From Candidatus Latescibacterota bacterium (GTDB taxonomy: Bacteria > Latescibacterota > UBA2968 > UBA8231), in the NCBI GenBank assembly GCA_965221775.1, contig CBDCSU010000005.1, forward strand, positions 480,001-544,000: 64,000 nt of DNA. The letters are read 5' to 3'. Each line of letters begins with the position of its first letter. The stretch's first letter is position 1. This document shows, in pieces, positions 45,322 through 64,000 of this stretch. A program made the translations under genes and the position numbers. Under the pieces are notes generated by a model that was not told where the DNA came from, did no database searches, and worked only from the letters and a program-made list of their open reading frames with translations.

Positions 45322-45504
45322 GGCCCCGGGGCGAACAGTGCTCCCGGTCCACAACCGCAGCGCAGGGCGCGCAGCCTGAGCCCCGGAAGTCGAGCCGGCC
45401 GCCACAGCCCGCGGCCGGTCGAGTCCGCACCCCTGTCCGCTTCAGACCCACGGCCTTTGCGGGCGGGGGTTCCACCATCCGCCCCATCCCTTAGTTTCCC
45501 ACTC

Positions 45505-49865: not shown

Positions 49866-51203
49866 ATGACGCAATCACCGACGCTCACCGCTCCATCGGC
49901 CTGCCACGTCATGGCCAAGCCTTCGGGCTCGGTCTGCAACATCGACTGCTCGTACTGCTTCTACCTCGAGAAAGAGAAGCTCTACCCCGACGCCGGCCGC
50001 AACTGGCGCATGAGCGACGAGGTGATGGAGCTGTACGTGAAGCAGTACATCGAGGCCCAGGACGTGCCGGCCGTGAACTTCGCCTGGCAGGGCGGCGAGC
50101 CGACGCTGCTGGGGGTCGACTTCTTCCGCCGCGCCGTGGAACTGCAGAAGCGCTACGCCGGCGGCAAGGAGGTGACCAACGCCTTCCAGACCAACGGCAT
50201 CCTCCTCGACGACGAGTGGGGCGAGTTCCTGGCGCGCGAGAAATTCCTCGTGGGCCTCTCCATCGACGGGCCGCGGGAGCTCCACGACCGCTACCGCGTC
50301 GACAAGGGGCAGAAGCCGACCTTCGACCGCGTCATCGCCGGCCTGGAGGTGCTCAAGAAACACGGCGCCGAGTTCAACACCCTCACGGTCCTGCAGAACC
50401 ACAACGCCGACCACCCCCTCGAGGTCTACCGCTTCCTCAAGGAGATCGGCTCCGGGTTCATGCAGTTCATCCCCATCGTCGAGCGCCTCACCGGCGACCC
50501 GGACGAGACCGGCCTGGAGCTGGTGGCGCCGGAGTTCGAGGGCCGCGCGGCGGTCACCCGCTGGTCGGTGGGGCCGGCCCAGTACGGCCGCTTCCTGTGC
50601 GCCGTCTTCGACGAGTGGGTGCGCCGCGACGTGGGCCGCTTCTTCGTGCAGATCTTCGACGTCTCCCTCGGCAGCTGGCTGGGGCAGGACGCCTCCCTGT
50701 GCATCTTCGCCGAGACCTGCGGCAACGCCCTCGTCATCGAGCACAACGGCGACCTCTACTCCTGCGACCACTTCGTCTACCCCGAGTACAACCTCGGCAA
50801 CGTGCGCGAGCAGACGATCCGCGACATGGTCGCCAGCCCCGAGCAGCGCCGCTTCGGGCAGGACAAGGCCGACGGCCTGCCGCGCTACTGCCTCGAGTGC
50901 GACTACCGCTTCGCCTGCAACGGCGGCTGCCCCAAGCAGCGCTTCGAGCGCACCCCCCACGGCGAGGGCGGGCTCAACTACCTGTGCCGCGGCTACAAGA
51001 TCTACTTCGGCCACGTCGACCCGTACATGCGGGTCATGGCCGACCTTGTGCGCCGCGGACAGCCGGCGGCGGGAATCATGGAGTGGGTACGTCAGCGGGA
51101 CTCGGCGCGGGCGGCGCCGGCACCGCCGAAGCGCAACGATCCGTGTCCGTGTGGGAGCGGACGCAAGTACAAGCGCTGCTGCGGCAACGCCGCGGCCGCA
51201 TAA
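49866..51203 (+). CDS. Anaerobic sulfatase maturase (radical SAM/SPASM) with SEC-C motif
   Basis: CNIDCSYCFY, FAWQGGEPTL, QTNG, SPASM cysteines, RNDPCPCGSGRKYKRCC. Confidence 0.95.
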   Translation: MTQSPTLTAPSACHVMAKPSGSVCNIDCSYCFYLEKEKLYPDAGRNWRMSDEVMELYVKQYIEAQDVPAVNFAWQGGEPTLLGVDFFRRAVELQKRYAGGKEVTNAFQTNGILLDDEWGEFLAREKFLVGLSIDGPRELHDRYRVDKGQKPTFDRVIAGLEVLKKHGAEFNTLTVLQNHNADHPLEVYRFLKEIGSGFMQFIPIVERLTGDPDETGLELVAPEFEGRAAVTRWSVGPAQYGRFLCAVFDEWVRRDVGRFFVQIFDVSLGSWLGQDASLCIFAETCGNALVIEHNGDLYSCDHFVYPEYNLGNVREQTIRDMVASPEQRRFGQDKADGLPRYCLECDYRFACNGGCPKQRFERTPHGEGGLNYLCRGYKIYFGHVDPYMRVMADLVRRGQPAAGIMEWVRQRDSARAAPAPPKRNDPCPCGSGRKYKRCCGNAAAA

Positions 51204-52140: not shown

Positions 52141-53853
52141 TCAGGTCAGGCCCACCACCTCGCCGTCGGCGTCGAGGTCGAGGTTCATGAAGGCCGGCTT
52201 CGACGGCAGCCCCGGCATGCGGCGGATCTCGCCGCACAGGGGCACCAGGAAGCCGGCTCCCGCCGAGAGCACCACGTCCCGCACCGGCAGCATGAAACCG
52301 GAGGGCACGCCCCGCAGCTCCGGGTCGTGCGACAGCGACAGGTGGGTCTTGGCCATGTTCACCGGCAGCGACCCGAAGCCGAGGTCCTCGTAGCGCTCGA
52401 TGGTGCTCTCCGCCTCCGGAGACAGATCGACTCCGCCGGCGCCGTAGATGAGCGCCGCCACGGTCTCGATCTTGTCGCGCAGGGGCGTCTCCTCGCCGTA
52501 GAGGAAGTCGAAGCTCGACCCCGACCGGCAGACATCGACCACGGCTTGCGCCAGCTCCGCCCCTCCGGCCCCGCCGCGGGCCCAGACGTCGCAGACGGCG
52601 GCCTCCGCGGCCCCCAGGCCGGGGGCGGCCTCCAGGACCCGGTCGACCTCGGCGTCGGTGTCCCCGGAGAAACGGTTGAGGGCGACCACGGCCGGCACCC
52701 CGAACTCGCCCACGATGCGGATGTTGGCCGCCAGGTTGTCCAGCCCTTTCTCCAGCCACGCCAGCTCCTCGTCGGCGCCGGACCGCCGCTTCTCGGGAGC
52801 GCCGCCGTGGGACTTGAGGGCCCGCACCGTGGCCACGACGACGGCGCAGTCCGGCCGCAGACCGGAGTAGCGGCACTTGACGTGGCAGAGCTTCTCGAAG
52901 CCGCAGTCGGCGCCGAAGCCGCTCTCGGTGACGAGGTACCCCTCCCCCATCAGGCCGAGGGCGATCTCGTCGGCGACGATGGAGCTGTTGCCGTGGGCGA
53001 TGTTGGCGAAGGGCCCGGCGTGGACCAGGACCGGCGTGTTCTCCAGGCTCTGCAGCAGGTTGGGCATCAGGGCGTCCTTGAGCAGGACCGCCATCGCCCC
53101 GGCCGCGCCCAGGTCCTCGGCGGTCACCGGCCGCCCGGCGCGGTCGAAGGCGGCGACCACCCGCCCCAGGCGGGCGCGCAGGTCCCCCAGGTCCCTAGCC
53201 AGCGCCAGGATCGCCATCACCTCGGAGGCGGCGGTGATGTCGAAGCCGGTGCGGCGGCGCACCCCCTCGCCGCCCTCGCCGACGACGATCTCGCGCAGGG
53301 CGCGGTCCCCGAGGTCGACGACCCGTTTCCAAGCGACCCGCTCCGGGTCGATGTCGAGCCGCTTCAGGCCGCGGCGGCGCAGGCGCCTGCCGCTCAGCCG
53401 CTCCTCGTGGTAGAGGCGCGAGTCGACCGCCGCGGAGAGCAGGTTGTGGGCCGCGGTGACGGCGTGGATGTCGCCGGTCAGGTGCAGGTTCATCTCGTCC
53501 ATGGGGATGACCTGGGCGCGGCCGCCGCCGGCGGCTCCCCCCTTGATGCCGAAGGTCGGCCCCATGGAAGGCTGGCGGATCGTGGCGATCGAGGTATGGC
53601 CGAGGGCGTTGAGGGCCTGGCTGAGGCCGATGGTCGTCGTCGTCTTGCCCTCGCCGTAGCGGGTGGGGGTCATGGCGGTGACGACGACGTATTTCGCCTG
53701 CCCGCCGCGGTTCCCCCGGTCGGCGGCATCGAGGTGGATCTTGGCCTTGTAGCGGCCGTACAGGTCGATGTCGCCGTCCGACAGCCCCAGCTTCGAGGCG
53801 ATGCCGGCGGCCGGCTCGGGGGTCGCCGCACGGGCGATGTCGAGATCGCTCAC
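52141..53853 (-). CDS. fhs: Formate--tetrahydrofolate ligase
   Basis: GTG start after GGGAGG; TPTRYGEGKTTT, GIKGGAAGGG, HAGPFANIAHG, VATVRALK, MAKTHLSLS, MPGLP. Confidence 0.96.
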   Translation of the reverse strand: MSDLDIARAATPEPAAGIASKLGLSDGDIDLYGRYKAKIHLDAADRGNRGGQAKYVVVTAMTPTRYGEGKTTTTIGLSQALNALGHTSIATIRQPSMGPTFGIKGGAAGGGRAQVIPMDEMNLHLTGDIHAVTAAHNLLSAAVDSRLYHEERLSGRRLRRRGLKRLDIDPERVAWKRVVDLGDRALREIVVGEGGEGVRRRTGFDITAASEVMAILALARDLGDLRARLGRVVAAFDRAGRPVTAEDLGAAGAMAVLLKDALMPNLLQSLENTPVLVHAGPFANIAHGNSSIVADEIALGLMGEGYLVTESGFGADCGFEKLCHVKCRYSGLRPDCAVVVATVRALKSHGGAPEKRRSGADEELAWLEKGLDNLAANIRIVGEFGVPAVVALNRFSGDTDAEVDRVLEAAPGLGAAEAAVCDVWARGGAGGAELAQAVVDVCRSGSSFDFLYGEETPLRDKIETVAALIYGAGGVDLSPEAESTIERYEDLGFGSLPVNMAKTHLSLSHDPELRGVPSGFMLPVRDVVLSAGAGFLVPLCGEIRRMPGLPSKPAFMNLDLDADGEVVGLT

Positions 53854-54015
53854 AATGGCCTCCCTGGCAGGCCCGGCGAATATCGCTCGCCCTCCGGAGG
53901 CCCGGCAAATCGCCCCGGCTCCCGGCGGCTCCGGTGCGCCCGGCGGCCCGCTTCCCTTTCTTACACACGGAATCATTCGCCGAGGTCGGCCCCCTTCACC
54001 CATCGGGATCTGCGC

Positions 54016-55020
54016 ATGAAAGCTACCAGGGACCTCATCATCGGCGCCTTCGCCACGGCCCTCCTGGGCTTCGCCTTCGCCAGGATCGAGTTGGTCGAGG
54101 CGCTCCTGGGCATGGGGCGCTACTACCAGAAAACGGAGTTCGGCCCGGCTCTCGCCGCCGTGCCCGCCCTCGCCTTGGTGGTCCTCTGGTTCGCGGGGCA
54201 GCGCTGGCGGGAGGCCTCGCGGCTGACGCGCGAGCTGAATCGCACCCAGGGCCGCCTGCGCCAGGCGCGGGAGAAGGGCCGCTCCCTGGAGGACCAGCTC
54301 GGCGGGACCAGCCGGATGGCCGCCATGGGCGCCCTCACCGGGGGGCTCGCCCACGAGTTCAACAACGTGCTGCAGCCGATCATCACCCTGGCCCAGCTCA
54401 ACCTCGACCAGAACGATTCGCCGGAGGAGCGCCGAATGCGGGTCCGGCATATCCTGAAGGCCGCCGAGCACGGCACCCAGATCGTCCGGGGCACCCTCGC
54501 CTTTCCCGCCGGCGGCACCCTGGAGACCGAGGAGTTGACCGCGGCCCGGGAGCTGGAGGAGATCGCCGACCAGGCCCGGGAGACCTACCGGGGCCGCCTC
54601 CAGGTGGAGGTCCGCATCGCCGAGGAGGCCGGCACCATCCGCGTCAACCCGAGCGAGTTCAGACAGGTCGTGACCAACCTCCTCAAGAACGCGGCCGAGG
54701 CGATGCGGGAGGGCGCCGTCGTCATCGGCCTCGACGCCGTCGACCTCGACGCCCGGGGCGCCGGCTCCCGCGGTCTGACGGCCGGCCCCTATCTGCGCGT
54801 CACCGTGACCGACGATGGGCCCGGAATGGCCCCCGACGCGGTGGCGAAGGTCTTCGAGCCCTTCTACACCACCAAGGAGGCCGGGAAGGGCACGGGCCTG
54901 GGCCTGGCGGTGGTGGACAGCCTGGTCCGGGGATGGAACGGCAGGATCTCGGTGCAGTCCTCCCCCGGCGAGGGAGCGTCCTTCGAGATCCTGATCCCCA
55001 GATCGGAAGGGGAGGACTGA
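54016..55020 (+). CDS. Membrane sensor histidine kinase
   Basis: Two TM segments; H-box GLAHEFNNVL, N-box NLLKNA, DDGPGM, FEPFYTTK, GTGLGL. Confidence 0.92.
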   Translation: MKATRDLIIGAFATALLGFAFARIELVEALLGMGRYYQKTEFGPALAAVPALALVVLWFAGQRWREASRLTRELNRTQGRLRQAREKGRSLEDQLGGTSRMAAMGALTGGLAHEFNNVLQPIITLAQLNLDQNDSPEERRMRVRHILKAAEHGTQIVRGTLAFPAGGTLETEELTAARELEEIADQARETYRGRLQVEVRIAEEAGTIRVNPSEFRQVVTNLLKNAAEAMREGAVVIGLDAVDLDARGAGSRGLTAGPYLRVTVTDDGPGMAPDAVAKVFEPFYTTKEAGKGTGLGLAVVDSLVRGWNGRISVQSSPGEGASFEILIPRSEGED

Positions 55021-55023
55021 GCC

Positions 55024-55422
55024 ATGGCCAAGGTGCTGATCGCCGAGCACGACGAGAGGGTGCTCGACGCCCTGGCCACGCTGCTGCGGAGCGCCGGCCA
55101 CGAGGTCTTCGAGGCCGGTCGCTGCGAAGACGCCCTGGAGACCGTCGCCTCCGAGAGTCCCGATATCCTCCTCACCGACGTGAACATGCCGGGGATGACC
55201 GGCGTCCAGATGATCAAGAGGCTGCGCAAGAGCCACCCCACCATCGGCATCATCGCCATGTCCGGCGGCGGCATGCACCAGAACCCGGAGCTGGCCACGA
55301 CCCTGGCCAGTATCGCCGGCGCCGACCGGGCGCTGGAAAAGCCCTTCAAGAACGAGATCCTGCTCTCGAACGTGCACTCCCTGCTGGCCACGGCCCGGAG
55401 GCCCCGCGCCGGCCGCAGGTAG
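55024..55422 (+). CDS. Single-domain response regulator (receiver)
   Basis: KVLIAE, LLTDVNMPGMTG, IIAMSG, LEKPF. Confidence 0.9.
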   Translation: MAKVLIAEHDERVLDALATLLRSAGHEVFEAGRCEDALETVASESPDILLTDVNMPGMTGVQMIKRLRKSHPTIGIIAMSGGGMHQNPELATTLASIAGADRALEKPFKNEILLSNVHSLLATARRPRAGRR

Positions 55423-55468
55423 ACGAGACCCGGGCGACCGGGTGGGGCCCATGGGCGGGGAGAGAGTC

Positions 55469-56212
55469 GTGAGTCCATCGGAGAATCAGTACGACGCCAT
55501 CGCCGGGGCCTACCAGGACTCGAAGCGGTTGCCATTTCGCAGATATGTGGAGGCCTACTCCCTGTTCGAGATCCTCGGAGACCTTCGAGGCACGAGAGTC
55601 GTGGACCTGGCCTGCGGCGACGGGTTCTACACTCGCCGGATCAAGAGCGCCGGGGCCCTCGAGGTCATCGGCGTCGATCTCTCGGCGGAGATGGTCAGGC
55701 TCGCCGAAGAGGAGGAGCGCGCCCGCCCCCTCGGGTGCAGGTACCTCCACCGGGATGCGGCGGCGGTGGAGCTGCCCGAACGGGTCGACCTGGTCGTGGC
55801 CGTCTATCTCCTCAACTACGCCAGGACGAGGGAGGAGCTGCTCCGCTTCGTCGAGACGGCTCACGCCTTGCTTCGGCCCGGAGGACGCCTCGTCGGGTTC
55901 AACGACAACGTGCGGAACGTGCCCAGGGGCCGGCTCTCCCTGGCCCGGTACGGGTTGGAGAAGGAGTGCGCCGAATCACCCCGGGAAGGGGACGTGATCC
56001 ACTACAGGATCACCAATGAAGATGGAGAGCGGTTCGAGTTCCGGAACTACTACCTGGAGCCGGAGACCTATGAGCGCTCCTTCCGGGAGGCCGGATTTTC
56101 CGGGTTTCGTTGGGCCGGTCCCTACCTGCACCCCTCTCAGCGCCACGATCCCTTCTGGGAGGACTTCATGTCCAGTCCCCCGGTCATCGGCTTCCGCGCG
56201 GACAGGCCGTGA
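55469..56212 (+). CDS. Class I SAM-dependent methyltransferase
   Basis: VVDLACGDG, GVDLSAEM, YLLNYA, LRPGG; start may be 55451. Confidence 0.88.
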   Translation: MSPSENQYDAIAGAYQDSKRLPFRRYVEAYSLFEILGDLRGTRVVDLACGDGFYTRRIKSAGALEVIGVDLSAEMVRLAEEEERARPLGCRYLHRDAAAVELPERVDLVVAVYLLNYARTREELLRFVETAHALLRPGGRLVGFNDNVRNVPRGRLSLARYGLEKECAESPREGDVIHYRITNEDGERFEFRNYYLEPETYERSFREAGFSGFRWAGPYLHPSQRHDPFWEDFMSSPPVIGFRADRP

Positions 56213-56267
56213 GCGCCGGCCGCCGCGCTGCGGCTCCCACCCGAAAACCTGCAAGAAGGAGGATCCC

Positions 56268-56786
56268 ATGAGACTTCAGATGCCCGGCCTTCACCGCCGT
56301 ACCCGGAGGTTGCCTCTGCTCATTCCCCTGGCCCTGCTCTTCCTGGCCTGCGGCGGCGACGACGCCCCGACCGAGCCGGAGCCCGCCCCGCCGGATGCCG
56401 AGGCGGCCGCCCGGGCGCAGGCGCAGGCGCTCTTCACCAGCCTCGAGCCGGTGGTGGCCAAGGCTCTGGAGCTGATGCTCACCGGGGGCGGCACGATCGA
56501 CGGCGAGCAGGGGACCCTGGCCGTGGCCGGCAGCACGATGACCCTGGAGTCGTTCTCGGCCGACGGCCAGCTCGTCCTCGACGGCGAGCTGGTCCTCGAC
56601 CTTCTCGTCCAGCCCGTCACCTTGAAGGGAGACCTGCAGGCCAGCGGGATCGAGGGCCGGGAAGGTCCGGTGCCCGTCAAGGTGGACGTCACCATCGACA
56701 TTTCCACCGACCCGCGGACCTACGGAGGTACCGTCACCATCGGCGAGGACGTGTACGACCTCGACGAGCTGTTCGCCGAGGAATAG
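56268..56786 (+). CDS. Putative lipoprotein
   Basis: AAGGAGG RBS; lipobox FLAC-GGDD; beta-rich body. Confidence 0.75.
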   Translation: MRLQMPGLHRRTRRLPLLIPLALLFLACGGDDAPTEPEPAPPDAEAAARAQAQALFTSLEPVVAKALELMLTGGGTIDGEQGTLAVAGSTMTLESFSADGQLVLDGELVLDLLVQPVTLKGDLQASGIEGREGPVPVKVDVTIDISTDPRTYGGTVTIGEDVYDLDELFAEE

Positions 56787-57004
56787 GGAAGCTGCCAGGG
56801 GGCGGCCCGGCTCCTCCGAGCCGGCGCCGCCGCCGGAGGGGATGGCGGTGATGTTGCCCTCCATTTCGACCGGGGGTACCTTCACCCGCTCCATACCCCG
56901 GCGGTCGAGCGCACCTCAGGTGACGCCCGTCGACGACCTCCGGACCTCCGGCGACAAGGCCGCCGACCGGCCTCCAGCAGACCGGGGATGAGACCTCCGC
57001 TACC

Positions 57005-60000
57005 GTGCCCCCACCGCTGAACTCCCAGGGCCTTCCCCTACGGCTCGTCGACCACCCCGGGCCCCGGGGGATCTGCCGCGCCCGGCGGAGCCCCGGGGAG
57101 GTCCTGGCCGACGGGGCCCTGGCCTTCGGCTCCCGCCCCTTCTCCGACACCTCCGTCACCGTCCCCGACGACGCCGGTCCCGAGGCGGCGCTGGCGGCCC
57201 GGCTGTGCGAACGGGCGGCGCGCTTGGTCTCCCGGCGCTTCGAGGGCGACACCCACCTGGCCGGGCTGGCCTCGGGTCTGGCCGGCACCGAGTGGCCGCT
57301 GGCCTTGTGCCGGGGCCACGAGCGCCTCCTCGACTTCGACGGCCGGCGCCTGTGGCTGGCGGCCGACGCCATGGCCGCCCTCGGCATCGGACTCGAGGCC
57401 AAGGACGATCTCAGCGCCGAGGTGCCCGAGCGCCTGCGCGGCTTCGAGCTCCTCCTCGCCCTCGGGCTCTTCGCCCAGCTCGACATCGTCCGCGGCGCCT
57501 CCCTGCGCCGGTCCCTGCGCTGGGTCGTCGACCTCTACCGCCGCCTGGGACGGCCGGACCAGGCCGTGCTCCTGGCCCTGCTCGAAGGCTCCGGAGAGCT
57601 CGACGCCGGCAACCTGTTCTCCTCCTTCCTGCGCCGGGGGAGCCGCGAGGAGACCATCGGCCGCGACCGCTGGATCACCTGGCTCCTCGGCCAGGACCGC
57701 CTCGACCTGCCCTACGACCGCCGGGCGGCGGGGGAGATCCTCGACAGCGACGCCGACGTGGACGACAAGCGCCTGCTCCTCTACGGGGTGCTGCGCGACT
57801 ACGACCGCGACCTGGAGGCGGAGAACATCCGCCGCCTCTCCCGCGAGATCCGGACCGCCGGACAGGAGCTGGTCTTCGGCCGCATGAGCCGCGCCTTCCA
57901 CAACCAAGGGGCGCTCTTCGCCGATGCCGTGCGCCTCACCCCGACGCCGGCCTGGAAGCCTCTGGCCGAAGAGGCCTGGGAGGCCGCCGCCGGAGCCGCG
58001 GCGATGCAGTCTCCGGCCCTGGAGCTGCGCCTGCTGCTGGAGGCGGGCCAGCCGGTCTCCCTGATCCAGATGGAGGGCGCCTGCGAACGCTACGAGGAGG
58101 CCTCCCTCGACGCCCAGCGCGACGACCTGATGCGGGGACTGCACCGGGCCCGGGCCTTGGTGGAGGACCACGGCGACGAGCTGGCCGGCCCCCGGCAGAC
58201 GGCCCTCGACGTCGATTCGGTGAGCCGCCTCGTCCGCCGGCGCCTCGGACTCGTGGAGCGCGTGCGCGAGGAGCTGCTGCGCTCCCCCTCCACCAACGCC
58301 GCCTACGTCGTCATCAGCCAGCGCCCCTCCCCCACCGGTTCCCACCTGCTGGTGAAGATCAACGAGTTCGAGGAGCCCTACCTGGGCAAGGCCGACAACC
58401 TGACGAAGCTGGCGCGCCTGGCCGGCGACCGCCTCTACTCCAGCCCCGACTACCGCTGGCTCGAGGTCGCCGACCACTGGATCGAGGCGATCCCCCTGTT
58501 CATCAAGGAGGAGGTCCTGGTCGACGACGACGGCGTCGAGTCGACGCGCACGGTCATCGACATCGACGGCATGGAGGAGTCCTTCCGCGAGGAGATGGCC
58601 GACCACTGGGCCGCGAACCTGCGCGACGTGGCCGACTCGGAGTACGTCTCCGCGGCCCGTTGGCTCCTGTGCCGGGAGGCCGGTCAGGACCGGGACGAGG
58701 CCGCCGCCCTCGACTGGGCGCGCTCCGCCCCCGGCGACCCCTCCGCCGACATCGCCTGCGCCGCGGCCCTCGTATCCCGCCTCGCCGCAGAGAACGCCGG
58801 CGATCTGCGGCGCCGCATCGAGGCCGAGGAGGAGGAGCCCTTCGAGGCCCTGTGGTCCCTGTTGTCGGCCTGGCGCTCCGAGCCCGCCTCGAGTCTCGCC
58901 GGGACCTTGGCCCGGGCCCGTGAAGAGCCGTGGTCCACCCTCGTCGATCCGGAAGCCGAGGTCGGCGAGTCCCGCGCCCGGTCCTTCCGCCGCAGGGCCC
59001 TCGAGCCCCGCCGGCCCCTGCCGGTGCTGCACGTGCTCACCACCCAGTCGGCGGGCATGACCGACGGCTACATCCGCACCTGGCTCGAGGAGTCGATGGC
59101 CCTGCGCAACGTCGCCGCCGCCCGCGGGCTGGAGGCCGAGGTCGACGAGCGGCGGGCGTTCTACCGCCGGCGGCTGAGCGCCCTCGGCGAGCGGGTGGTC
59201 CGCGAGCTGGGCATCTGGGTCGAGGTGGAGGAAGCCGCCGCCGAGGAGGATCTCGACGAAGGCGCCGCCGTGTCGCGCGTCGTCGGCGGCAACCGCTCGG
59301 TCCAGGAGGAGGTCGCCGTCCTCGGCGCTCTCATCGAGCTGGCCGAGGAACGCGGCGGCGAGCGGGAGCCCGGCGACGTGGCCGACCCGGCGGAGGTGGC
59401 CAGGCTCTGCGAGTCGGGTGACCGGGACCTGGTCCGCCAGGCCCTGGAGCGGGTGGCGGCGCGCAACGGCCGCCAGCTCGAGGAGGAGGTCGAGGCCCTG
59501 AGGTCCGCCGAGCCCGCCCTGTCCCGGCAGGACGCCCTGGTGCGGGTCGTGGAGGGCGACGAGGACTACCGCCAGGACCTGGAGAGCTTCACCCGCTTCC
59601 TGGCCCGCCGCCGCCTGGTGGACGACTGGTCCCGCCAGGCGGGCGTCGACGGCGACGACCGGCGGCGCACCTACCTGCGCCGGTTCTCGCGGCTGGCCGG
59701 GACGACGGCCCGCAAGCAGGTGCTGCTGCGCCACGGTCTCGCCCACCTGACCCTCGACCCGGCCTACCGCTGGGCCGCCGCCGGGGGCGACAAGCGCTAC
59801 CACCTGCTCTACACGCCGAGCCGCGTCGACCTCGGGCACCGGGAGCGGGAGTCGGTGGAGACCTGGTCCCAGTGGGTCGGCGGCGCCGACCGCGCCGCGG
59901 CGCGCGCCGGCAGAGAGATCTACGGGCTGATCAACAAGTCCGTGCGCAGCTACGACAGCCTGGCCGAGCCGGAGATCCTCAAGACCGGCGAGAACGCCAG

Positions 60001-63000
60001 CATGGCCTCGCACTTCGCCTTCTCCAACGCCCTGTCGCTGATGGTCTCGGCCAGCGGCCACGGCGACATCGAGGAGATGGGCGACCAGATGAGCCGCCGC
60101 GGCGACCGCGTCATCCATCCGGCGGGCGAGGGCTACGGCGGCTACTGCGTGCCCAAGGACGGCCTCTTCCTCGAGTTCGTCCTCACCCTCGGCCGCGCCG
60201 AGAAGCTGCGCCAGCTCGGCGTTCCCGCCGAGCACCACGACGGGGTGGCCGGCGCCGCGGCAAGGCTCCTCGGCCGCCGCGGCGAGTTCGCCACGCGCTT
60301 CGAGTGGGAGGCCTGGGCCGCCGGCGCCCTGGGCGGCGTCGACGGCCTCGGCGGGCTGTTCGCCGTCCGCGAGGGAGAGGGGGGGCCGGTTCCGGTCTTC
60401 CAGATCACCCGCCTGGCCGAGGTCCTGGAAGGGCTGGGAGAGCCGGAGCTGCACGACGCCGAACGCGCCACCACGGCGCGGGTGGCGCGCTGGGGCGTGC
60501 ACAAGATGGTCGCCGGCGCCGAGCACGTGAACCGCTTCATGCCCTTCTACAAGGTCTGGCTGACCCGGCGGGCCCTGGCCGACGCCGCCCGCCGCCACCC
60601 CGCCGCGGCGGCCGCCCCGGTGGTGGTGCTCACGGCGGAGTACAAGCCCGACACCCAGGACGGGCGGTTCGCCGCCGGCATGCGCAAGTTCGAGATCCTG
60701 TGCGGCACGGCGGACCACCTGCTCTACGCCCTCGACGCGGAGGGCCAGACCCTGGCGGGCCTGCTGTCCGATGGCTTCGACGGCGTCGACCGCCGCGGGC
60801 GCGCGGATCGGGCCGCTGCCGCCCTCGGCCTCGACCCCGGCGATCCGTCGACGCCGGGAACCCTGCGCGAGCTCTTCCCCGAGCCGCCCCGGCCGGCCGA
60901 GATCCGCGTCGTCTCCCCCACCGGCCTCTCGACCCAGGACCTGCTCGGCTACACCAGCGACACCAGCCTGGAGGCGGTCGCCGAGGGAGCCCATCAGGAG
61001 CTGACCGCCGCCGGCTTCAGCGGCGCCGAGATCGAGGCCAGCCTGGCCACCTACGGGCCGCACCTGGAGCGCTGGGCCTCGGCGGCCGACATCGACGCCG
61101 GCCTCCGCGCCGACCTGTCGCGGCGGCTCTCCGGACGGCTGCACGCCCTGGCCCTGCAGGTCCTCGGTCCCGAGCGCTCCTACGAGCACGCCCTGCAGGG
61201 CGCCGACGTCCTCGACACCGGCATTCCGCACGCGGCCCTGCTGCGGCTTCTCGAGGATCCGGCGGCGGTCTGCCGCCTGATGCTGGAGGGCCGCCCCGAC
61301 AGCGCCCTGGTCATCGTCGACGGCGCCTCCGGGGCCCGCCGGCGCGCTCTGAACCGTCTCGACGTCATGCTCTGGTTCGCCGCCGGAGAGCGCTACGGCC
61401 GCGAGCCGGTCTACGCCGGCATCGGCCTGGGGAACCGCACCGTCGAGGGCTGGCGCCAGGCGATGCGCCGGCAACGGCGCCGCGCCCGGCGACTGGGCGA
61501 GGCCCTGCGCGCCTCCGACGCCGGCGCCGCCGCCGCCGAGTACGCGCAGATCCTGGCCGAGGTGCGCCTCGGCCAGGAGGCGGAGCTGCAGCTGGCCGAG
61601 GTCGACAAGCTGCGCCGCTTCCAACGCCTGCGCCGGCGCGACGAACTGGTGGCCCGGTCCCTCGCCCGCCTCGCCGGGGGGTTGCCCCTGGAGGAGCTCG
61701 GCTTCGCCGACTTCCTCGTCCTCGGCGGCGTCTTCCTCCTCGACGGGGCCCCTGCCGAGGAGATCGACGACTGGCGGCGCGGCCTGGGCCTCGGCCCGGG
61801 GGACCCGGACTCCCGGGAGCTGGAGAGCCTGCTCCTGCACCCGGCCCGGCCCCCGGAGCTGGGAGAGTTCCGCGAGGAGAAAGGTCTGGAGAGCTCGAAC
61901 AAGGCGGCCGAGGACCGTCCCGTCGCCGCCCTCGAGGCGCGCAGCCAGTTGCGGGCCCGCATCCTCCGCGCCCGGGCCCTCCACGAGCGGCACCGCGGCG
62001 CCGAGTCCGTCGACGGCCGGCGCGCTTCCTTCGAAGAGGCCCGGGCCGCGGCCTTCGAGGTCCTGGGCGACGGCCGCGGGACCGTCACCGACGCGGCCTT
62101 CGGCGCCTTCATCGCCCACGCCCGCACCGCCCTCTCCGCCCTCGTGACCGGGCAGTACGACGAGGGACAGGCCGACGAGGCCCAGCGCTTCCACGACAAC
62201 CTTGCACAGCTCTTCCTCGGCCACGAGATCGACCCGGAGGACTGGCGCCGGATCGCCGGCGGCTACGAGGACGTGGGCGACTTCGGACGCCTGGCGCAGG
62301 CCGTGGTCGAGCGCGAGGAGGCCGGCGCCGCCGGTCACGGCCTGCGCCAGGTGGCGGCCGGAGCCGAGCTGTTCTACATCCTCCTGGCGGTGGAGACGAC
62401 CCTGCCCTACACCCGGGAAGGGGCTCCCGCCGACCCCGAGGGACTCTGGCGCGCCCTGGCCGACTTCTTCGCCGAGACCGTAGACGACCACTTCTACGAG
62501 TACCGGCCCTGGGTCTACTCCCGGGGGGTCGGTTTCTCCTCGTACTCGGGCGACTCCCTCTACGAGCTGGCCGTCGAGCACCACCAGTGGCTGGGGCGCT
62601 ACCTGCGCCAAGTCGTGACCCGTCACACCGAGCTGGCCGGCCGGACCTCGGAGGACCAGGACCTGCTTCTGGGCCGCCATGAGGGCGATGCCGCCGTCGA
62701 CCCCATCGGCGTCACCGCCGCCTCCGGGCCGGAGCGGCGCTGGCGGGCCTACGGACAGCTGCGCGAGCTCGCCTTCATGCGCAACGACGGCTTCCCCATC
62801 CCCCCCGTGTTCTCCGAGTTCGATCCCGGCCTGATCGACGCCGACCGGCGAGTCAACCACCTGATCGCCCTGCCCGTGGGCCGCACCCACTACTCGCGGG
62901 CCCTGGTCGAGGGGCCGACCCTGTCCCGGGAGCTGACCGCCGCCGGACGGCCCGGGACCAACCTGATCATCAGCCGCGGCGTCGACTTGGTGGACGATCC

Positions 63001-64000
63001 GCAGGCCGGCCGGCCCGTCGTGCAGATCCGTTCCGGCCACCTCTACGTCTCGCGGGAGGAGTACGCGGCGGCCCTTGTCCGCCATCGCGGCCTCGACGCC
63101 GAGGAGGCCCGCGAGCAGGCCGGGCGCGAGGGCACCCCGAAGGGGATCCGGCTGGCCGTGCGCTTCACGCGCCCCCTGACGGCGGCCGTCGTCTACCCCT
63201 TCCACGGGGACCCCCGGTACCACGAGGGACGCCTGGAGGACTGCGGACTGCCCTACTCGGTGCAGTCCCTGTTCCACACCTGGACCACCTACGACAAGGC
63301 GAAGTACCCCGACATCTTCGACGCCGCCTCCGGCGTCGACGTGCCCCACGAGATCGACTGGCTCGCCGCCGACACCCGGCGCGCGCCCTCCGAGAGCGCC
63401 GCCAGGAACTGGATCGAGAACGGCCTGGACGGGTCGGACTACCCGGGGCTGCGGGAGTTCGCCCGCCGCCATCGCCTGGTGATGATCAAGGACGCCGCCG
63501 AGTCCGGGGGCCGGAACGCCCGGGCCTTCGTCCTTCGCCGGCTCGCGGCCGCCGCCGTCGACGAGGCGGAGCTGGAACGCGCCGTCGACTTCGTCCACCA
63601 GATCAGCCTGCGCCACAACGTCGCCATCCAGGAGGTGATCCTGTCCTCGCCGGAGGCCTGGGCCACCGACGACTTCATCGACTCCTTCGTGCGCCGCCAG
63701 GTCGTCGAGTGGGGCTCCGCCGTCGAGCGCCGGCGCCGGCCGCGCTCGCCGATCTACGGATCGCACCGGGTGATCGTCTCATCCGACGATCCGGCCGCCG
63801 ACCTCCCCCTCGAGGAGCGCTGGCACCTGTCCCACTGGATCACCCTCAACAGCAAGCAGCTGATCACCAATGTCGGCCGCGGCGGCAGCCTCGAGCGCTT
63901 CCTCCCCGAGATCGTCCAGCCCGCCTGCCGGCAGGCCCTCTTCGACGGCCTGGCCGCCGCCGCCCGCGGGGTCATGGAGGCCCTGAGCGCCTATGCCGGG
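57005..64000 (+). CDS. Giant (>2330 aa, incomplete) fusion: expanded nucleotide-sugar dehydrogenase-like region plus ATP-grasp ligase domain
   Basis: Frame open from GTG 57005 (previous in-frame stop at 56921) to the window end, with G/C-ending codons; motifs YTPSRVDLG, EPEILKTGEN, GEGYGGYCVPKD, AEYKPDTQDGR, then YDKAKY, IKDAAESGGRN, IQEVI, TNVGRGG. Confidence 0.85.
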   Translation, partial: MPPPLNSQGLPLRLVDHPGPRGICRARRSPGEVLADGALAFGSRPFSDTSVTVPDDAGPEAALAARLCERAARLVSRRFEGDTHLAGLASGLAGTEWPLALCRGHERLLDFDGRRLWLAADAMAALGIGLEAKDDLSAEVPERLRGFELLLALGLFAQLDIVRGASLRRSLRWVVDLYRRLGRPDQAVLLALLEGSGELDAGNLFSSFLRRGSREETIGRDRWITWLLGQDRLDLPYDRRAAGEILDSDADVDDKRLLLYGVLRDYDRDLEAENIRRLSREIRTAGQELVFGRMSRAFHNQGALFADAVRLTPTPAWKPLAEEAWEAAAGAAAMQSPALELRLLLEAGQPVSLIQMEGACERYEEASLDAQRDDLMRGLHRARALVEDHGDELAGPRQTALDVDSVSRLVRRRLGLVERVREELLRSPSTNAAYVVISQRPSPTGSHLLVKINEFEEPYLGKADNLTKLARLAGDRLYSSPDYRWLEVADHWIEAIPLFIKEEVLVDDDGVESTRTVIDIDGMEESFREEMADHWAANLRDVADSEYVSAARWLLCREAGQDRDEAAALDWARSAPGDPSADIACAAALVSRLAAENAGDLRRRIEAEEEEPFEALWSLLSAWRSEPASSLAGTLARAREEPWSTLVDPEAEVGESRARSFRRRALEPRRPLPVLHVLTTQSAGMTDGYIRTWLEESMALRNVAAARGLEAEVDERRAFYRRRLSALGERVVRELGIWVEVEEAAAEEDLDEGAAVSRVVGGNRSVQEEVAVLGALIELAEERGGEREPGDVADPAEVARLCESGDRDLVRQALERVAARNGRQLEEEVEALRSAEPALSRQDALVRVVEGDEDYRQDLESFTRFLARRRLVDDWSRQAGVDGDDRRRTYLRRFSRLAGTTARKQVLLRHGLAHLTLDPAYRWAAAGGDKRYHLLYTPSRVDLGHRERESVETWSQWVGGADRAAARAGREIYGLINKSVRSYDSLAEPEILKTGENASMASHFAFSNALSLMVSASGHGDIEEMGDQMSRRGDRVIHPAGEGYGGYCVPKDGLFLEFVLTLGRAEKLRQLGVPAEHHDGVAGAAARLLGRRGEFATRFEWEAWAAGALGGVDGLGGLFAVREGEGGPVPVFQITRLAEVLEGLGEPELHDAERATTARVARWGVHKMVAGAEHVNRFMPFYKVWLTRRALADAARRHPAAAAAPVVVLTAEYKPDTQDGRFAAGMRKFEILCGTADHLLYALDAEGQTLAGLLSDGFDGVDRRGRADRAAAALGLDPGDPSTPGTLRELFPEPPRPAEIRVVSPTGLSTQDLLGYTSDTSLEAVAEGAHQELTAAGFSGAEIEASLATYGPHLERWASAADIDAGLRADLSRRLSGRLHALALQVLGPERSYEHALQGADVLDTGIPHAALLRLLEDPAAVCRLMLEGRPDSALVIVDGASGARRRALNRLDVMLWFAAGERYGREPVYAGIGLGNRTVEGWRQAMRRQRRRARRLGEALRASDAGAAAAEYAQILAEVRLGQEAELQLAEVDKLRRFQRLRRRDELVARSLARLAGGLPLEELGFADFLVLGGVFLLDGAPAEEIDDWRRGLGLGPGDPDSRELESLLLHPARPPELGEFREEKGLESSNKAAEDRPVAALEARSQLRARILRARALHERHRGAESVDGRRASFEEARAAAFEVLGDGRGTVTDAAFGAFIAHARTALSALVTGQYDEGQADEAQRFHDNLAQLFLGHEIDPEDWRRIAGGYEDVGDFGRLAQAVVEREEAGAAGHGLRQVAAGAELFYILLAVETTLPYTREGAPADPEGLWRALADFFAETVDDHFYEYRPWVYSRGVGFSSYSGDSLYELAVEHHQWLGRYLRQVVTRHTELAGRTSEDQDLLLGRHEGDAAVDPIGVTAASGPERRWRAYGQLRELAFMRNDGFPIPPVFSEFDPGLIDADRRVNHLIALPVGRTHYSRALVEGPTLSRELTAAGRPGTNLIISRGVDLVDDPQAGRPVVQIRSGHLYVSREEYAAALVRHRGLDAEEAREQAGREGTPKGIRLAVRFTRPLTAAVVYPFHGDPRYHEGRLEDCGLPYSVQSLFHTWTTYDKAKYPDIFDAASGVDVPHEIDWLAADTRRAPSESAARNWIENGLDGSDYPGLREFARRHRLVMIKDAAESGGRNARAFVLRRLAAAAVDEAELERAVDFVHQISLRHNVAIQEVILSSPEAWATDDFIDSFVRRQVVEWGSAVERRRRPRSPIYGSHRVIVSSDDPAADLPLEERWHLSHWITLNSKQLITNVGRGGSLERFLPEIVQPACRQALFDGLAAAARGVMEALSAYAG

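Follow-up and report, generated by a model that had tools for sequence, protein, structure and literature searches.

A 2,473-residue protein combining a derived NDP-sugar 6-dehydrogenase with an ATP-grasp ligase, encoded beside a second ATP-grasp ligase and a GHMP kinase

The window analysed here, a stretch of 64,000 nucleotides, ends within a giant forward-strand gene whose product consists, in order, of a 420-residue module, a derived NDP-sugar 6-dehydrogenase, a 400-residue helical module and a D-Ala-D-Ala-ligase-like ATP-grasp (Table 1). The family to which it belongs is rare, unnamed and undescribed in the literature searched, and its architecture, conserved residues, gene linkage and gene fusions are reported below as observed. 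Our preferred reading, to which we give somewhat less than an even chance, is that this soluble protein of 2,473 residues, with its derived dehydrogenase and ATP-grasp, acts together with another ATP-grasp and with a GHMP kinase to make a sugar-acid conjugate.

Table 1. Features of the window and of the giant gene within it.
Feature	Position	Strand	Evidence or remark
Formate-tetrahydrofolate ligase	52141-53850	-	
Histidine kinase, HisKA and HATPase_c at C-terminal end of ORF 52327-55020, start approximate	53900..55020	+	
Stand-alone response-regulator receiver protein	55024..55422	+	PF00072, E 1.6e-22
SAM-dependent methyltransferase	55442..56212	+	
ORF without family	56016..56786	+	Adjoins giant gene in 4/80 loci
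Giant gene, residues 1-2332 of 2473 in window	57005..64000	+	GC3, ORF, P0003 match
Antisense 2,242-codon ORF, no gene	57038..63766	-	Shadow of + gene
N-terminal module, residues 1-420, without known family	57005..58264	+	Alignment A6
Remodelled region at place of dehydrogenase NAD domain, residues 420-925	58262..59779	+	Model m2def22f0431b, motif conservation
NDP-sugar 6-dehydrogenase-like catalytic core, residues 926-1260	59780..60784	+	Pfam, TIGR03026, PDB profiles, Foldseek, hhalign, conservation
Ser939 codon, at place of family-invariant Glu of Pro-Glu motif	59819..59821	+	hhalign register, conservation, translation
Cys1048 codon, counterpart of dehydrogenase catalytic nucleophile	60146..60148	+	hhalign, conservation, translation
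Rest of nucleotide-sugar-binding-like alpha/beta domain, residues 1261-1490, with ~140-residue insertion	60785..61474	+	Model
Mostly helical module, residues 1491-1880, without known family	61475..62644	+	Alignment A7
ATP-grasp ligase module, residues 1881-2332 in window, on to 2473	62645..64000	+	Model, Foldseek, conservation

From 57005 the + strand carries a genuine single gene. It opens at a GTG (an in-frame ATG at 56987, 18 bases upstream, is an alternative start) and runs without a stop for 2,332 codons to the window end, where it is 3'-open, as the initial annotation had described; every motif quoted there was recovered at its position in this frame, with YTPSRVDLG re-translated at 59810-59836 (+) and GEGYGGYCVPKDG at 60125-60163 (+), the latter fixing the Cys1048 codon. 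On the organism's own contig (L006, 1005..8426) the TGA sits 426 bases past the window (window-equivalent 64426), giving 2,473 codons in full. The opposite strand carries an ORF of 2,242 codons in this 72% GC DNA, and ORF length alone is therefore no proof of coding. That ORF was rejected as a high-GC shadow of the + gene, its codon-position GC being unlike coding and its product rich in Gly, Ala, Val and Pro. The + frame was accepted because codon bias and homologues favour it: GC3 is ~0.95 over the whole frame (0.91-0.99 in all 300-base bins from 57101 to the window end), and a public protein of 2,473 aa (P0003) is 99% identical to the product. The antisense ORF does show that long non-coding ORFs arise here, which is the one point in favour of the giant gene being itself an artefact, whether a chance ORF in high-GC DNA or several genes merged by frameshift or misassembly. 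This explanation, to which we attach practically no weight, is refuted by the uniform GC3, by the uninterrupted architecture that recurs in relatives from several phyla and by contigs from independent metagenomes that span parts of the gene and cover its junctions; in four regions cut from 80 loci, moreover, stop codons appeared in the cuts from only three (L014, L017, L039). The internal stop or frameshift that the initial annotation had named as a possible objection was not found in the gene.

A public protein search (E ≤ 0.001) matched at least 124 proteins to the giant protein, most of the 120 listed being about 2,450-2,500 aa long, and 80 loci were retained out of 101 matching stretches in species genomes. 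The fused ATP-grasp domain has 124 representatives among 1.84 billion proteins, and in the 48 that reach at least 1,400 aa it always occurs with other parts of the giant protein or with the two partner genes. The relatives bear the public name 'hypothetical protein'. No description of the architecture was found in the literature searched, which agrees with the initial annotation, whose author knew of none. Carriers include sponge-associated and soil Gemmatimonadota and Latescibacterota, freshwater methanotrophs and Omnitrophota. Such bacteria are widespread in the environment and little studied.

The C-terminal ATP-grasp proposed in the initial annotation is well supported by structure prediction. 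Residues 1880-2473 were modelled (mf2bcdca78c18) with a pLDDT of 93.2 and a pTM of 0.92 as a three-domain D-Ala-D-Ala-ligase-like ATP-grasp fold. Foldseek returned 74 PDB matches at E ≤ 0.001, those listed being ATP-grasp enzymes, with D-Ala-D-Ala ligases at the top (E from 6.9e-8, prob 1.0) and VanA, DcsG, LysX, RimK and glutathione synthetase also present. Conserved residues comprise Lys2162, Ser2167-Gly2168, Arg2170, Gln2209, Arg2255 and Asn2289-x-Gly-Arg-Gly-Gly, with Asp2364 and Glu2412-Pro-Asn2414 past the window. Lys2162, Asp2364, Glu2412 and Asn2414 are invariant in alignment A1; among 44 distant relatives, Lys2162 is kept in 41, Ser2167, Gly2168 and Arg2170 in 43 each, Asn2289 in 42 and Asp2364 in 36 (plus two with Glu), and Glu2412 and Asn2414 are kept in 33 of the 33 aligned. 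We take Lys2162 to be the ATP-phosphate Lys, and Asp2364 and Glu2412-x-Asn2414 to bind Mg2+, from motif position, a low-probability hhalign register and general knowledge of the fold; the predicted ATP/Mg2+ residues of the fused ligase are intact. The domain gave no Pfam or NCBIfam ATP-grasp match at E up to 1, none to the sugar-transfer associated ATP-grasp family (PF14397), a PDB profile E of 0.3 with D-Ala-D-Ala ligases and an hhalign probability of 5% with them. In the light of the Pfam and hhalign results, its substrate class is therefore not readable from sequence.

Two further genes, beyond the view of the initial annotation, follow the giant gene, and both are part of its system. The giant's stop overlaps the start of a second ATP-grasp gene (GTGA; 494 aa), after which comes a GHMP kinase gene. 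The kinase exceeds the cut-offs of PF00288 (29.9 bits against 22.3) and PF08544 (22.4 against 21), and resembles the kinase part of fucokinase (NCBIfam NF009948, model positions 613-972, E 9.6e-36). The partner ATP-grasp matches PF14397 below its cut-off (E 2.4e-5, 24.1 bits against 31.4) and over model positions 7-81 only, and its sole PDB sequence match is the ATP-grasp domain of cyanophycin synthetase (7wac, E 0.009). By tblastn (E ≤ 1e-5), the partner ATP-grasp was found in 49 of the 69 loci with at least 1.5 kb downstream and not in the other 20; the kinase was found in 26 of the 60 with at least 4 kb downstream and not in the other 34. The cultured Methylovulum miyakonense has the same gene order. 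In Omnitrophota the giant, the second ATP-grasp and the GHMP kinase are fused in proteins of 3,000-7,944 aa, the GHMP domain being confirmed by Pfam in six of seven scanned; one fused relative scored 21.2 bits against PF14397 (cut-off 31.4). As an operon the system occurs in methanotrophs and Gemmatimonadota-type sponge symbionts; in Omnitrophota it takes the form of single proteins.

The central claim of the initial annotation, a UDP-glucose/GDP-mannose-dehydrogenase-like core within the same polypeptide, was upheld by several methods. The core comprises the PSRVDLG strand, a helical central domain that carries Lys993 and Asn997, the GGYC1048VPKD1052 loop and the first part of the nucleotide-sugar domain, with EYK1214PDTQD1219GR1221. 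PF00984 matches residues 990-1056 just above its cut-off (E 1.3e-5, 25.6 bits against 25.4), TIGR03026 matches residues 929-1058 (E 1.7e-15) with 56.7 bits, far below its cut-off of 189.8, and PDB profiles matched 3g79 (NDP-N-acetyl-D-galactosaminuronic acid dehydrogenase), 4a7p (UDP-glucose dehydrogenase UgdG) and 4r16 (UDP-ManNAc dehydrogenase), each at about 2e-5. In hhalign, residues about 925-1260 align with columns 138-348 of 407 of canonical dehydrogenases (97.4%, E 1.4e-11). Foldseek of the middle model gave NDP-sugar dehydrogenases throughout among the matches listed (to rank 50), with E-values that are weak because of insertions (best 1.7e-3, TM about 0.3 on target). The hhalign alignment extends through EYKPDTQDGR and only weakly beyond; the remaining C-terminal domain is suggested by the order of strands in the model (IRVV, VLD, VIVD, VYAG), and PF03720, the C-terminal UDP-binding domain, had no match in the giant protein. 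Conservation was counted where sequences aligned, in 120 near and 39 distant relatives. Lys1051, Lys1214 and Arg1221 do not vary in either group; Lys993, Asn997 and Cys1048 are unchanged in every aligned sequence (118-119/120 near, 38/39 distant); at position 1052 all 120 near relatives have Asp, and 38/39 distant ones have either Asp or Glu; Asp1219 is kept in all near and 38/39 distant relatives (158/159 in total); and Tyr1213 is invariant in the relatives aligned. The catalytic roles proposed earlier for Lys993, Asn997 and Cys1048 therefore agree with both register and conservation, and Asp1052 can be added. By sequence, the derived dehydrogenase retains a predicted covalent-catalysis set (Cys1048, Lys993, Asn997, Asp1052) and nucleotide-sugar motif (Lys1214, Asp1219, Arg1221). 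The same genome encodes one ordinary member of the NDP-sugar dehydrogenase family elsewhere.

The assignment of VVISQRPS (as NAD loop), HWIEAIP and HVLTTQSAGMT to a dehydrogenase N-domain found no support. PF03721, the NAD-binding N-domain, had no match at E up to 1; hhalign against the canonical N-domain gave a probability of 0.6% for residues 420-529 and <1% for residues 664-719; and the canonical invariants G6/G8/G11 have no counterpart in the giant protein, GxGxxG being absent. The model of the remodelled region has short beta strands VVI (435-437), HWIEA (491-495) and LHVLTT (674-679) with two long helical insertions between them, and the loop past the first strand reads SQRPSPTGSH instead of GxGxxG. 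Motifs of this region are conserved in distant relatives, and the Rossmann-like region is modelled with low confidence (pLDDT 52-61). Given the lack of an NAD-binding signature and this low pLDDT, redox activity of the core stays putative.

NDP-sugar 6-dehydrogenases have a fixed size and mechanism, in which two NAD+-dependent oxidations proceed via a Cys thioester that is hydrolysed by Glu-activated water. By residue count, we take Glu161 of human UGDH to be the Glu of the family's Pro-Glu motif. Glu161 is reported as the base for thioester hydrolysis, and the E161Q enzyme accumulates the thioester (PMC3265891). In the hhalign register the canonical invariant Pro148-Glu149 corresponds to Pro938-Ser939, and every relative aligned at position 939, 118 near and 37 distant, has Ser there. 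The derived dehydrogenase has neither the Gly-rich NAD loop nor the Glu of the Pro-Glu motif.

Both losses bear on the scheme of the initial annotation, oxidation of an NDP-sugar to the uronate followed by ligation. In its strict form, a true NAD+-dependent four-electron oxidase would free an NDP-uronate, whose carboxylate the fused and then the second ATP-grasp would activate as acyl phosphate and amidate. To oxidise and then amidate is plausible for the giant enzyme, since conservation extends to the catalytic Cys/Lys/Asn/Asp and to the nucleotide-sugar motif, the ATP-grasp is intact, the partner weakly matches the 'sugar-transfer associated' family and separate C. jejuni enzymes are reported to perform the same chemistry (PMC11800397). 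However, the N-domain is not recognisable as that of a dehydrogenase, and all 155 aligned relatives have Ser at the position of the Glu that helps to free the acid from the thioester; we regard the strict form as unlikely. An enzyme that has to protect a thioester could be expected to lose the hydrolytic Glu and keep the oxyanion and thiol machinery, as seen here, and loss of the NAD loop would suit a non-redox role. The dehydrogenase-derived module might accordingly be a covalent acyl-holding station and no NAD-dependent oxidase, with a sugar-acid (or other acyl) thioester on Cys1048 that is loaded or unloaded in concert with the two ATP-grasps and that, because the hydrolytic Glu is Ser, water would not release; we think this improbable. 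In one version, likewise doubtful, the reaction would run in reverse, an ATP-grasp making an acyl phosphate from a carboxylate and Cys1048 capturing it as thioester; the acyl group would then go to an amine or, given NAD(P)H binding, be reduced. The linkage or fusion of two ATP-grasp ligases agrees with this, and aspartate-semialdehyde and glyceraldehyde-3-phosphate dehydrogenases are established cases in which an acyl phosphate is converted to a Cys thioester. Nevertheless, delivery of an acyl phosphate by an ATP-grasp enzyme to a protein thiol is not known to us, the conserved nucleotide-sugar-binding motif points to an NDP-sugar substrate, and the GHMP kinase is left without a role. If true, the acyl-holding reading would amount to a thiotemplate assembly line of a new kind, driven by ATP-grasps and making a sugar-acid/amino-acid conjugate.

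The remaining modules have no known family. The N-terminal module gave no PDB profile match at E up to 10 and no Pfam or NCBIfam match, and the ESM Atlas yielded nothing for residues 1-700; its invariant polar residues include D200, W226, Q230, P236, Y237, D253, N274, G292-R293, R296 and N300-Q301. The helical stretch before the ATP-grasp, which the initial annotation had put at about 600 residues, is present and nearer 400 (about 1490-1880); its conserved motifs include ESSNKA, GGYED.GD.GR and DH.YEYRPW.YSRG, and its profile had no significant PDB match. Upstream of the giant gene, two-component, sigma-54 activator, HDOD or MASE1 genes occur in many loci. In the window, the start of the histidine kinase is approximate because the formate-tetrahydrofolate ligase occupies part of its ORF on the opposite strand; the methyltransferase is not conserved beside the giant gene in other lineages, and an internal lipoprotein-like signal suggests a true start near 56280 for the ORF that follows it. 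Such neighbours, and large helical modules without explanation, would fit a dehydrogenase-like part without catalytic function, which binds a ligand or acts as a scaffold within a large regulatory or structural protein; only the ATP-grasp and kinase activities would then matter. The full catalytic set is nonetheless invariant in relatives down to about 25% identity, as would not be expected of a pseudoenzyme, and we consider this explanation very unlikely.

Under the preferred reading, the GHMP kinase would phosphorylate a sugar, which, probably in the form of a nucleotide sugar, would then enter the dehydrogenase-like site. There its C6 acyl group would sit on Cys1048 in a thioester that water does not simply cleave, and the two ATP-grasp ligases would couple the acyl group, or the carboxyl, to an amine or amino acid or to two of these. 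The product would be an amide-linked sugar-acid conjugate, either a small molecule or a glycan precursor. Against this stand the missing NAD-binding signature, the weak Foldseek E-values of the middle model and the loci in which a partner gene was not found. Moreover, none of the genes conserved beside the giant gene in the loci compared encodes a nucleotidyltransferase, glycosyltransferase or exporter, so that no conserved gene is at hand to turn the kinase product into a nucleotide sugar or to export the product; and direct aminolysis of the thioester, if possible, would leave the fused ATP-grasp without evident need. A fold that has kept its thioester machinery, dropped the NAD loop and hydrolytic Glu and been welded to a ligase may perform chemistry new for it, namely thioester capture or delivery, and its coupling to another ligase and to a sugar kinase, by fusion in some phyla, points to a new metabolite or glycoconjugate. 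With Methylovulum miyakonense HT12 as a cultured carrier, the question is open to direct testing.

The giant protein shares with NDP-sugar 6-dehydrogenases (nearest solved structures 3g79, 4a7p and 4r16) the central domain, the catalytic Lys/Asn, the Cys-x-x-Lys/Asp loop, the preceding strand P-x-R-V-D-x-G and the YK..D.R nucleotide-sugar motif. It differs in that its module spans ~1,080 residues with large helical insertions (about 420-480 in canonical enzymes), has Ser for the invariant Glu, no GxGxxG and no detectable N-domain similarity, and is embedded in a much longer protein. With D-Ala-D-Ala ligase-type ATP-grasps (also VanA, DcsG, LysX, RimK and glutathione synthetase) the fused domain has in common the three-domain fold, the conserved Lys, the Mg2+-binding acid/Asn and the Gly-rich loops, and the H-G ... 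G-L-P-Y ... D-K stretch of D-Ala-D-Ala ligase is in register with it; it is larger (~590 residues), with extra elements and marginal sequence similarity. The GHMP kinase corresponds to the kinase half of the Fkp-type bifunctional fucokinase/fucose-1-phosphate guanylyltransferase (NF009948), but it scores 122.8 bits against a cut-off of 721, lacks the nucleotidyltransferase half and has its own N-terminal extension of ~200 residues without family. Cyanophycin synthetase is likewise a large multi-domain synthetase containing an ATP-grasp; the similarity is very weak, and the giant has no Mur-ligase-like domain and no sign of a polymer product. The closest chemical precedent is the HS:2 glucuronamide pathway of C. 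jejuni, in which the C-terminal domain of Cj1438 is presumably an ATP-grasp. Cj1441, a UDP-glucose dehydrogenase, and this domain are reported to provide sugar C6 oxidation and ATP-dependent amidation of glucuronate, as separate, ordinary-sized enzymes in a capsule locus with glycosyltransferases (PMC11800397). In the giant system, by contrast, one protein unites the modules, the dehydrogenase has been remodelled and conserved glycosyltransferase or export genes are absent nearby, while sugar C6 oxidation and ATP-dependent amide formation on a uronate are what the two systems would have in common.

The long forward-strand frame reported in the initial annotation opens at a GTG at position 57005 and is given in the ORF listing as 2,332 codons within the window, open at its 3′ end. 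In the adjoining DNA (L006, this genome's own locus, which reaches past the window) the frame is closed by a TGA 426 bases beyond the window, giving a protein of 2,473 aa; translation could alternatively begin at an in-frame ATG 18 bases further 5′. The GC content of the window is 66–76% in most 2-kb bins, with a single bin at 62%. Third-position GC in the giant frame is 0.91–0.99 in each 300-base bin from 57101 to the window end, second-position GC is 0.36–0.58, and the translation has a normal and varied composition. Together with the stop codon and a public protein (P0003) of 2,473 aa with 99% identity to the translation, this codon-position signal identifies the frame as a genuine gene. 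All of the motifs previously read in it were found in the translation where they had been placed, two of them after re-translation. The ORF of 2,242 codons on the opposite strand is a high-GC shadow of the giant gene, because its product is rich in Gly, Ala, Val and Pro and its codon-position GC is wrong for coding; an ORF track could mis-call it.

Relatives of the giant protein are named 'hypothetical protein' in public sources. A word-seeded search returned at least 124 proteins at E ≤ 0.001, and among the 120 matches listed most are 2,400–2,540 aa long, with 37–99% identity over their full length. Scanning one genome per species yielded 101 stretches encoding a relative, of which 80 loci were retained; carriers are labelled Gemmatimonadota/Gemmatimonadaceae, Candidatus Latescibacterota, Methylococcaceae (including the cultured Methylovulum miyakonense HT12, and also Methyloglobulus morosus KoM1), Omnitrophota, Planctomycetota, Myxococcales, Desulfovibrionaceae and others. 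Within the window's phylum, the gene was present in 45 of 168 genomes searched (11 of the 52 of high quality) and in 18 of 49 genera, including all nine genomes of the same genus. G004 and G030, two other genomes from this phylum, each hold a pair of copies on different contigs. A tblastn search of plasmids with the family-specific part returned nothing. In-frame stops were seen in the excerpts from three relatives' loci (one each in L014 and L039, two in L017 along with four unknown residues), which errors in sequencing or decay of the copies might explain. Near-identical DNA occurs in sequencing runs labelled as sponge or marine metagenomes from nine studies, where uncovered parts of the operon carry no meaning. 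A run labelled as a metatranscriptome holds contigs ∼90–99% identical to parts of the giant gene and of the second ATP-grasp and kinase genes that follow it, which we do not take as proof of transcription, since the library may contain DNA and the contigs come from a relative.

The proposal that the protein contains a UDP-glucose/GDP-mannose dehydrogenase stood for the central domain and the catalytic residues, and found no support for the NAD-binding N-domain. In Pfam, the only match to this part was the central domain PF00984 at residues 990–1056 (E 1.3e-5; 25.6 bits, just over the cut-off of 25.4), while NCBIfam TIGR03026 matched residues 929–1058 with an E-value of 1.7e-15, far under its cut-off. 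A profile of 48 full-length family members retrieved the NDP-sugar dehydrogenases 3g79, 4a7p and 4r16 from the PDB at ∼2e-5. In profile-profile comparison with a canonical set of 27 NDP-sugar dehydrogenases from genomes of the window's phylum, residues 420–1500 matched with 97.4% probability (E 1.4e-11) across canonical columns 138–348 of 407, a stretch bounded by the Pro-Glu strand and the YKPD..DD.R motif, with the central domain in between. An AlphaFold2 model of the same residues, built on a 60-sequence alignment, reached a pLDDT of 81.2 and a pTM of 0.80. Its Foldseek matches, listed to rank 50, were all NDP-sugar 6-dehydrogenases; the modest best E-value (1.7e-3) and low target TM (∼0.3) are due to large helical insertions. 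Among 120 near and 39 distant relatives, counted where aligned, Lys993, Asn997, Cys1048, Lys1051, Lys1214 and Arg1221 do not change; position 1052 holds Asp throughout the near relatives and either Asp or Glu in the distant ones, and Asp1219 is Asp in all near and 38 of 39 distant relatives. A non-catalytic scaffold, which we consider very improbable, would have to be reconciled with this constancy.

In the canonical enzymes, G6, G8 and G11 (the NAD loop), V83/T85/P86, S119/T120 and P148/E149 are invariant. The giant protein is without a Gly-rich loop and has SQRPSPTGSH after its first predicted strand, of which only Gln-Arg is retained in most distant relatives. Profile comparison of residues 420–529 and 664–719 with the canonical N-domain gave a probability below 1%, and PF03721 found no match in the protein even at E up to 1. 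The model places the short strands VVI, RLY, HWIEA, LHVLTT, YHLLY and QWVGG in Rossmann-sheet order, and an LTT...G.T motif is reminiscent of the canonical STT.PGTT, both at a pLDDT of just 52–61. The active-site loops that are conserved best (residues 441–445, 939–947 and 1034–1050) are among the segments where pLDDT falls under 50; this would fit mobile, ligand-dependent loops. It is unlikely, to our minds, that the module works without redox chemistry, merely holding an acyl group, or runs in reverse; the missing NAD loop and the retained Cys1048 would fit this reading.

The canonical Pro148-Glu149 pair aligns with Pro938-Ser939 of the giant protein, and Ser occupies the second position in all 118 near and all 37 distant relatives aligned there. 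The Glu of this motif is presumably Glu161 of human UGDH, and the residue count from Lys220 agrees. One study of the human enzyme describes Glu161 as the Brønsted base that hydrolyses the Cys276 thioester, which accumulates in the E161Q variant (PMC3265891). By analogy, Cys1048 may form a C6 acyl-thioester that is shielded from water. The simpler scheme of the initial annotation, in which a free uronate is released and then amidated, keeps the Cys active site and the fused ligase and needs hydrolysis at a site with Ser in place of that Glu; we regard it as improbable, though not negligible.

The C-terminal ATP-grasp domain, which had been proposed from motifs, was borne out by structure prediction. 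Pfam and NCBIfam ATP-grasp models did not match it, but the model of residues 1880–2473 (68-sequence alignment; pLDDT 93.2, pTM 0.92) retrieved 74 PDB chains at E ≤ 0.001, and the matches listed are ATP-grasp enzymes: VanA and D-Ala-D-Ala ligases at the top (6.9e-8, probability 1.0), followed by DcsG, LysX, RimK, glutathione synthetase and biotin-carboxylase-type enzymes. A PDB sequence search with the family profile gave a single marginal ATP-grasp match (E 0.3), with FHG...GLPY...DK in register with D-Ala-D-Ala ligase. As hhalign gave just 5% probability against D-Ala-D-Ala ligases of the window's phylum, the fold assignment depends on the structure model. Lys2162, Ser2167, Gly2168, Arg2170, Asn2289, Gly2291, Gly2294, Asp2364, Glu2412 and Asn2414 are conserved into the distant relatives. 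HMMER found the domain in only 124 of 1.84 billion representative proteins; in the 48 of these with at least 1,400 aa it always lies beside other parts of the giant protein or its two partner genes. Shorter matching proteins (47–95% identity, mostly on short contigs) are read as fragments of giants, and no split or stand-alone module was found within the sensitivity of the search. In one genome (G015, contig C11, ∼87000–87791, reverse strand) a partial second D-Ala-D-Ala-ligase-like gene lies ∼5 kb from the giant copy.

Residues 1–420 and 1490–1880 contain conserved polar motifs and have no Pfam or NCBIfam match. Profiles of the two family alignments (A6 for the N-terminal and A7 for the helical module) found no meaningful match among PDB sequences, and the ESM Atlas gave no usable match to residues 1–700. 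As no 19-residue window has a mean hydropathy above 1.6, the giant protein is probably soluble.

Extension of the contig also revealed the genes downstream. The TGA of the giant gene overlaps the GTG start of the next gene (GTGA). The 494-aa product of this second gene shows weak matches to ATP-grasp families: PF02655 (E 2e-5), the sugar-transfer-associated PF14397 (E 2.4e-5, under the cut-off) and, among PDB sequences, cyanophycin synthetase 7wac (E 0.009). Comparison of the fused and partner ATP-grasp proteins showed that they are not close paralogues. A third gene encodes a 596-aa GHMP kinase, which is similar over its C-terminal 380 residues to the kinase half of fucokinase/fucose-1-P guanylyltransferase (E 9.6e-36, well under the equivalog cut-off). 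With tblastn at E ≤ 1e-5, the partner ATP-grasp was found in 49 of 69 loci with at least 1.5 kb downstream (46 directly downstream on the same strand, three upstream on the other) and not in the remaining 20; the kinase was found in 26 of 60 loci with at least 4 kb downstream and not in 34. Methylovulum miyakonense has the same order of three genes, followed by a 'Gate'-domain membrane protein. Distant representatives (among P0173–P0259) include proteins of 3,000–7,944 aa, and local BLAST with the operon parts showed that these keep the module order of the giant protein and continue with the second ATP-grasp and, in several, the GHMP kinase. P0174 (4,185 aa) joins the giant to both partners, the second ATP-grasp and the kinase, and P0175 and P0178 join both ATP-grasp domains and the kinase; Pfam confirmed the GHMP domain in six of seven long fusions scanned. 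The two with organism names are from Omnitrophota. The long fusions are also extended at the N or C terminus, by up to ∼3,500 residues that matched no family in the seven scanned; one has a hexapeptide-repeat segment and one a partial CsrA-like match. Taken with the overlapping stop and start, these fusions argue more strongly than any other finding for a single process in which all three gene products act.

Other neighbours are less constant (see table). The giant gene of this genome is preceded on its own strand by genes for a histidine kinase, a receiver protein, a methyltransferase and a small probable lipoprotein. In relatives, the genes upstream on that strand encode a PAS histidine kinase, an NtrC-type sigma-54 activator and an HDOD protein. 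In Methylovulum a MASE1 protein is encoded upstream on the same strand, and a hybrid kinase and an HD-GYP response regulator further up on the opposite one. Being found in few loci (4 of 80 for the small ORF), neither the methyltransferase nor the small ORF was accepted as a core part. Given its lipoprotein-like signal, the small ORF, which as listed overlaps the methyltransferase gene, probably starts past that gene, near 56280. Two further listed ORFs, overlapping stop-to-stop frames on opposite strands, are far longer than their genes, since only their C-terminal parts match families. The FabI and DUF2064 genes lie 3.3–4.8 kb past the giant's stop, in loci all of the Gemmatimonadota/Latescibacterota type, and were treated as lineage synteny and not as system parts. 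A nucleotidyl-transfer step might conceivably come from the DUF2064 protein, but its gene is on the other strand and absent from methanotroph loci. In the loci examined, the giant gene has no consistent neighbour that encodes a glycosyltransferase, nucleotidyltransferase or exporter, and a scan for sigma-70 promoters and terminators around the operon gave nothing exceeding shuffles.

Features around the giant gene (window positions unless marked L006, the extended locus of this genome)
Feature	Position	Strand	Remark
ABC-F type ATPase	45457-47448	+	near the radical SAM/SPASM gene
DUF4838 protein	47465-49756	-	adjoins the radical SAM/SPASM gene
Radical SAM/SPASM protein	49866-51203	+	C-terminal SEC-C motif
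Long frame	52141-55452	-	real gene only the C-terminal 568 aa, formate-tetrahydrofolate ligase (52141-53850)
Long frame	52327-55020	+	real gene only the C-terminal end, histidine kinase
Small ORF, no family	56016-56786	+	hydrophobic stretch then Cys at about residues 96-117, lipoprotein-signal-like
Antisense ORF, 2,242 codons	57038-63766	-	
FabI-type enoyl-ACP reductase	L006 11684-12550	+	keeps its place downstream in 19/80 loci
DUF2064 (CofC-like nucleotidyltransferase fold)	L006 12547-13236	-	convergent to FabI; keeps its place in 18/80 loci

The giant operon combines a UGDH-type Cys active site that has a nucleotide-sugar motif, no NAD loop and Ser for the Glu of Pro-Glu with two intact-looking ATP-grasp ligases and a sugar-kinase-like GHMP enzyme. 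Our tentative preference, held with a little less than even confidence, is for a pathway running from the kinase through a water-protected Cys1048 thioester to amide linkage by ATP-grasp. A sugar would be phosphorylated and would then enter the dehydrogenase-like site, probably in the form of an NDP-sugar whose synthesis depends on a gene outside the operon. The ATP-grasp ligases would join the acyl or carboxyl group, in amide linkage, to amines or amino acids, one or two in number. In agreement with the initial annotation, whose author knew of no described protein with this architecture, a full-text literature search found no description of a dehydrogenase-like/ATP-grasp giant protein (a Lipocone preprint has the relevant words in unrelated contexts), and outside the PF00984 match the protein is covered by no curated family. 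Every part with an assignable fold is a member of a known superfamily, and the mechanistic twist is unusual and testable. A precedent for the oxidation and amidation chemistry in separate enzymes is provided by Cj1441 and the C-terminal domain of Cj1438 of C. jejuni (PMC11800397).
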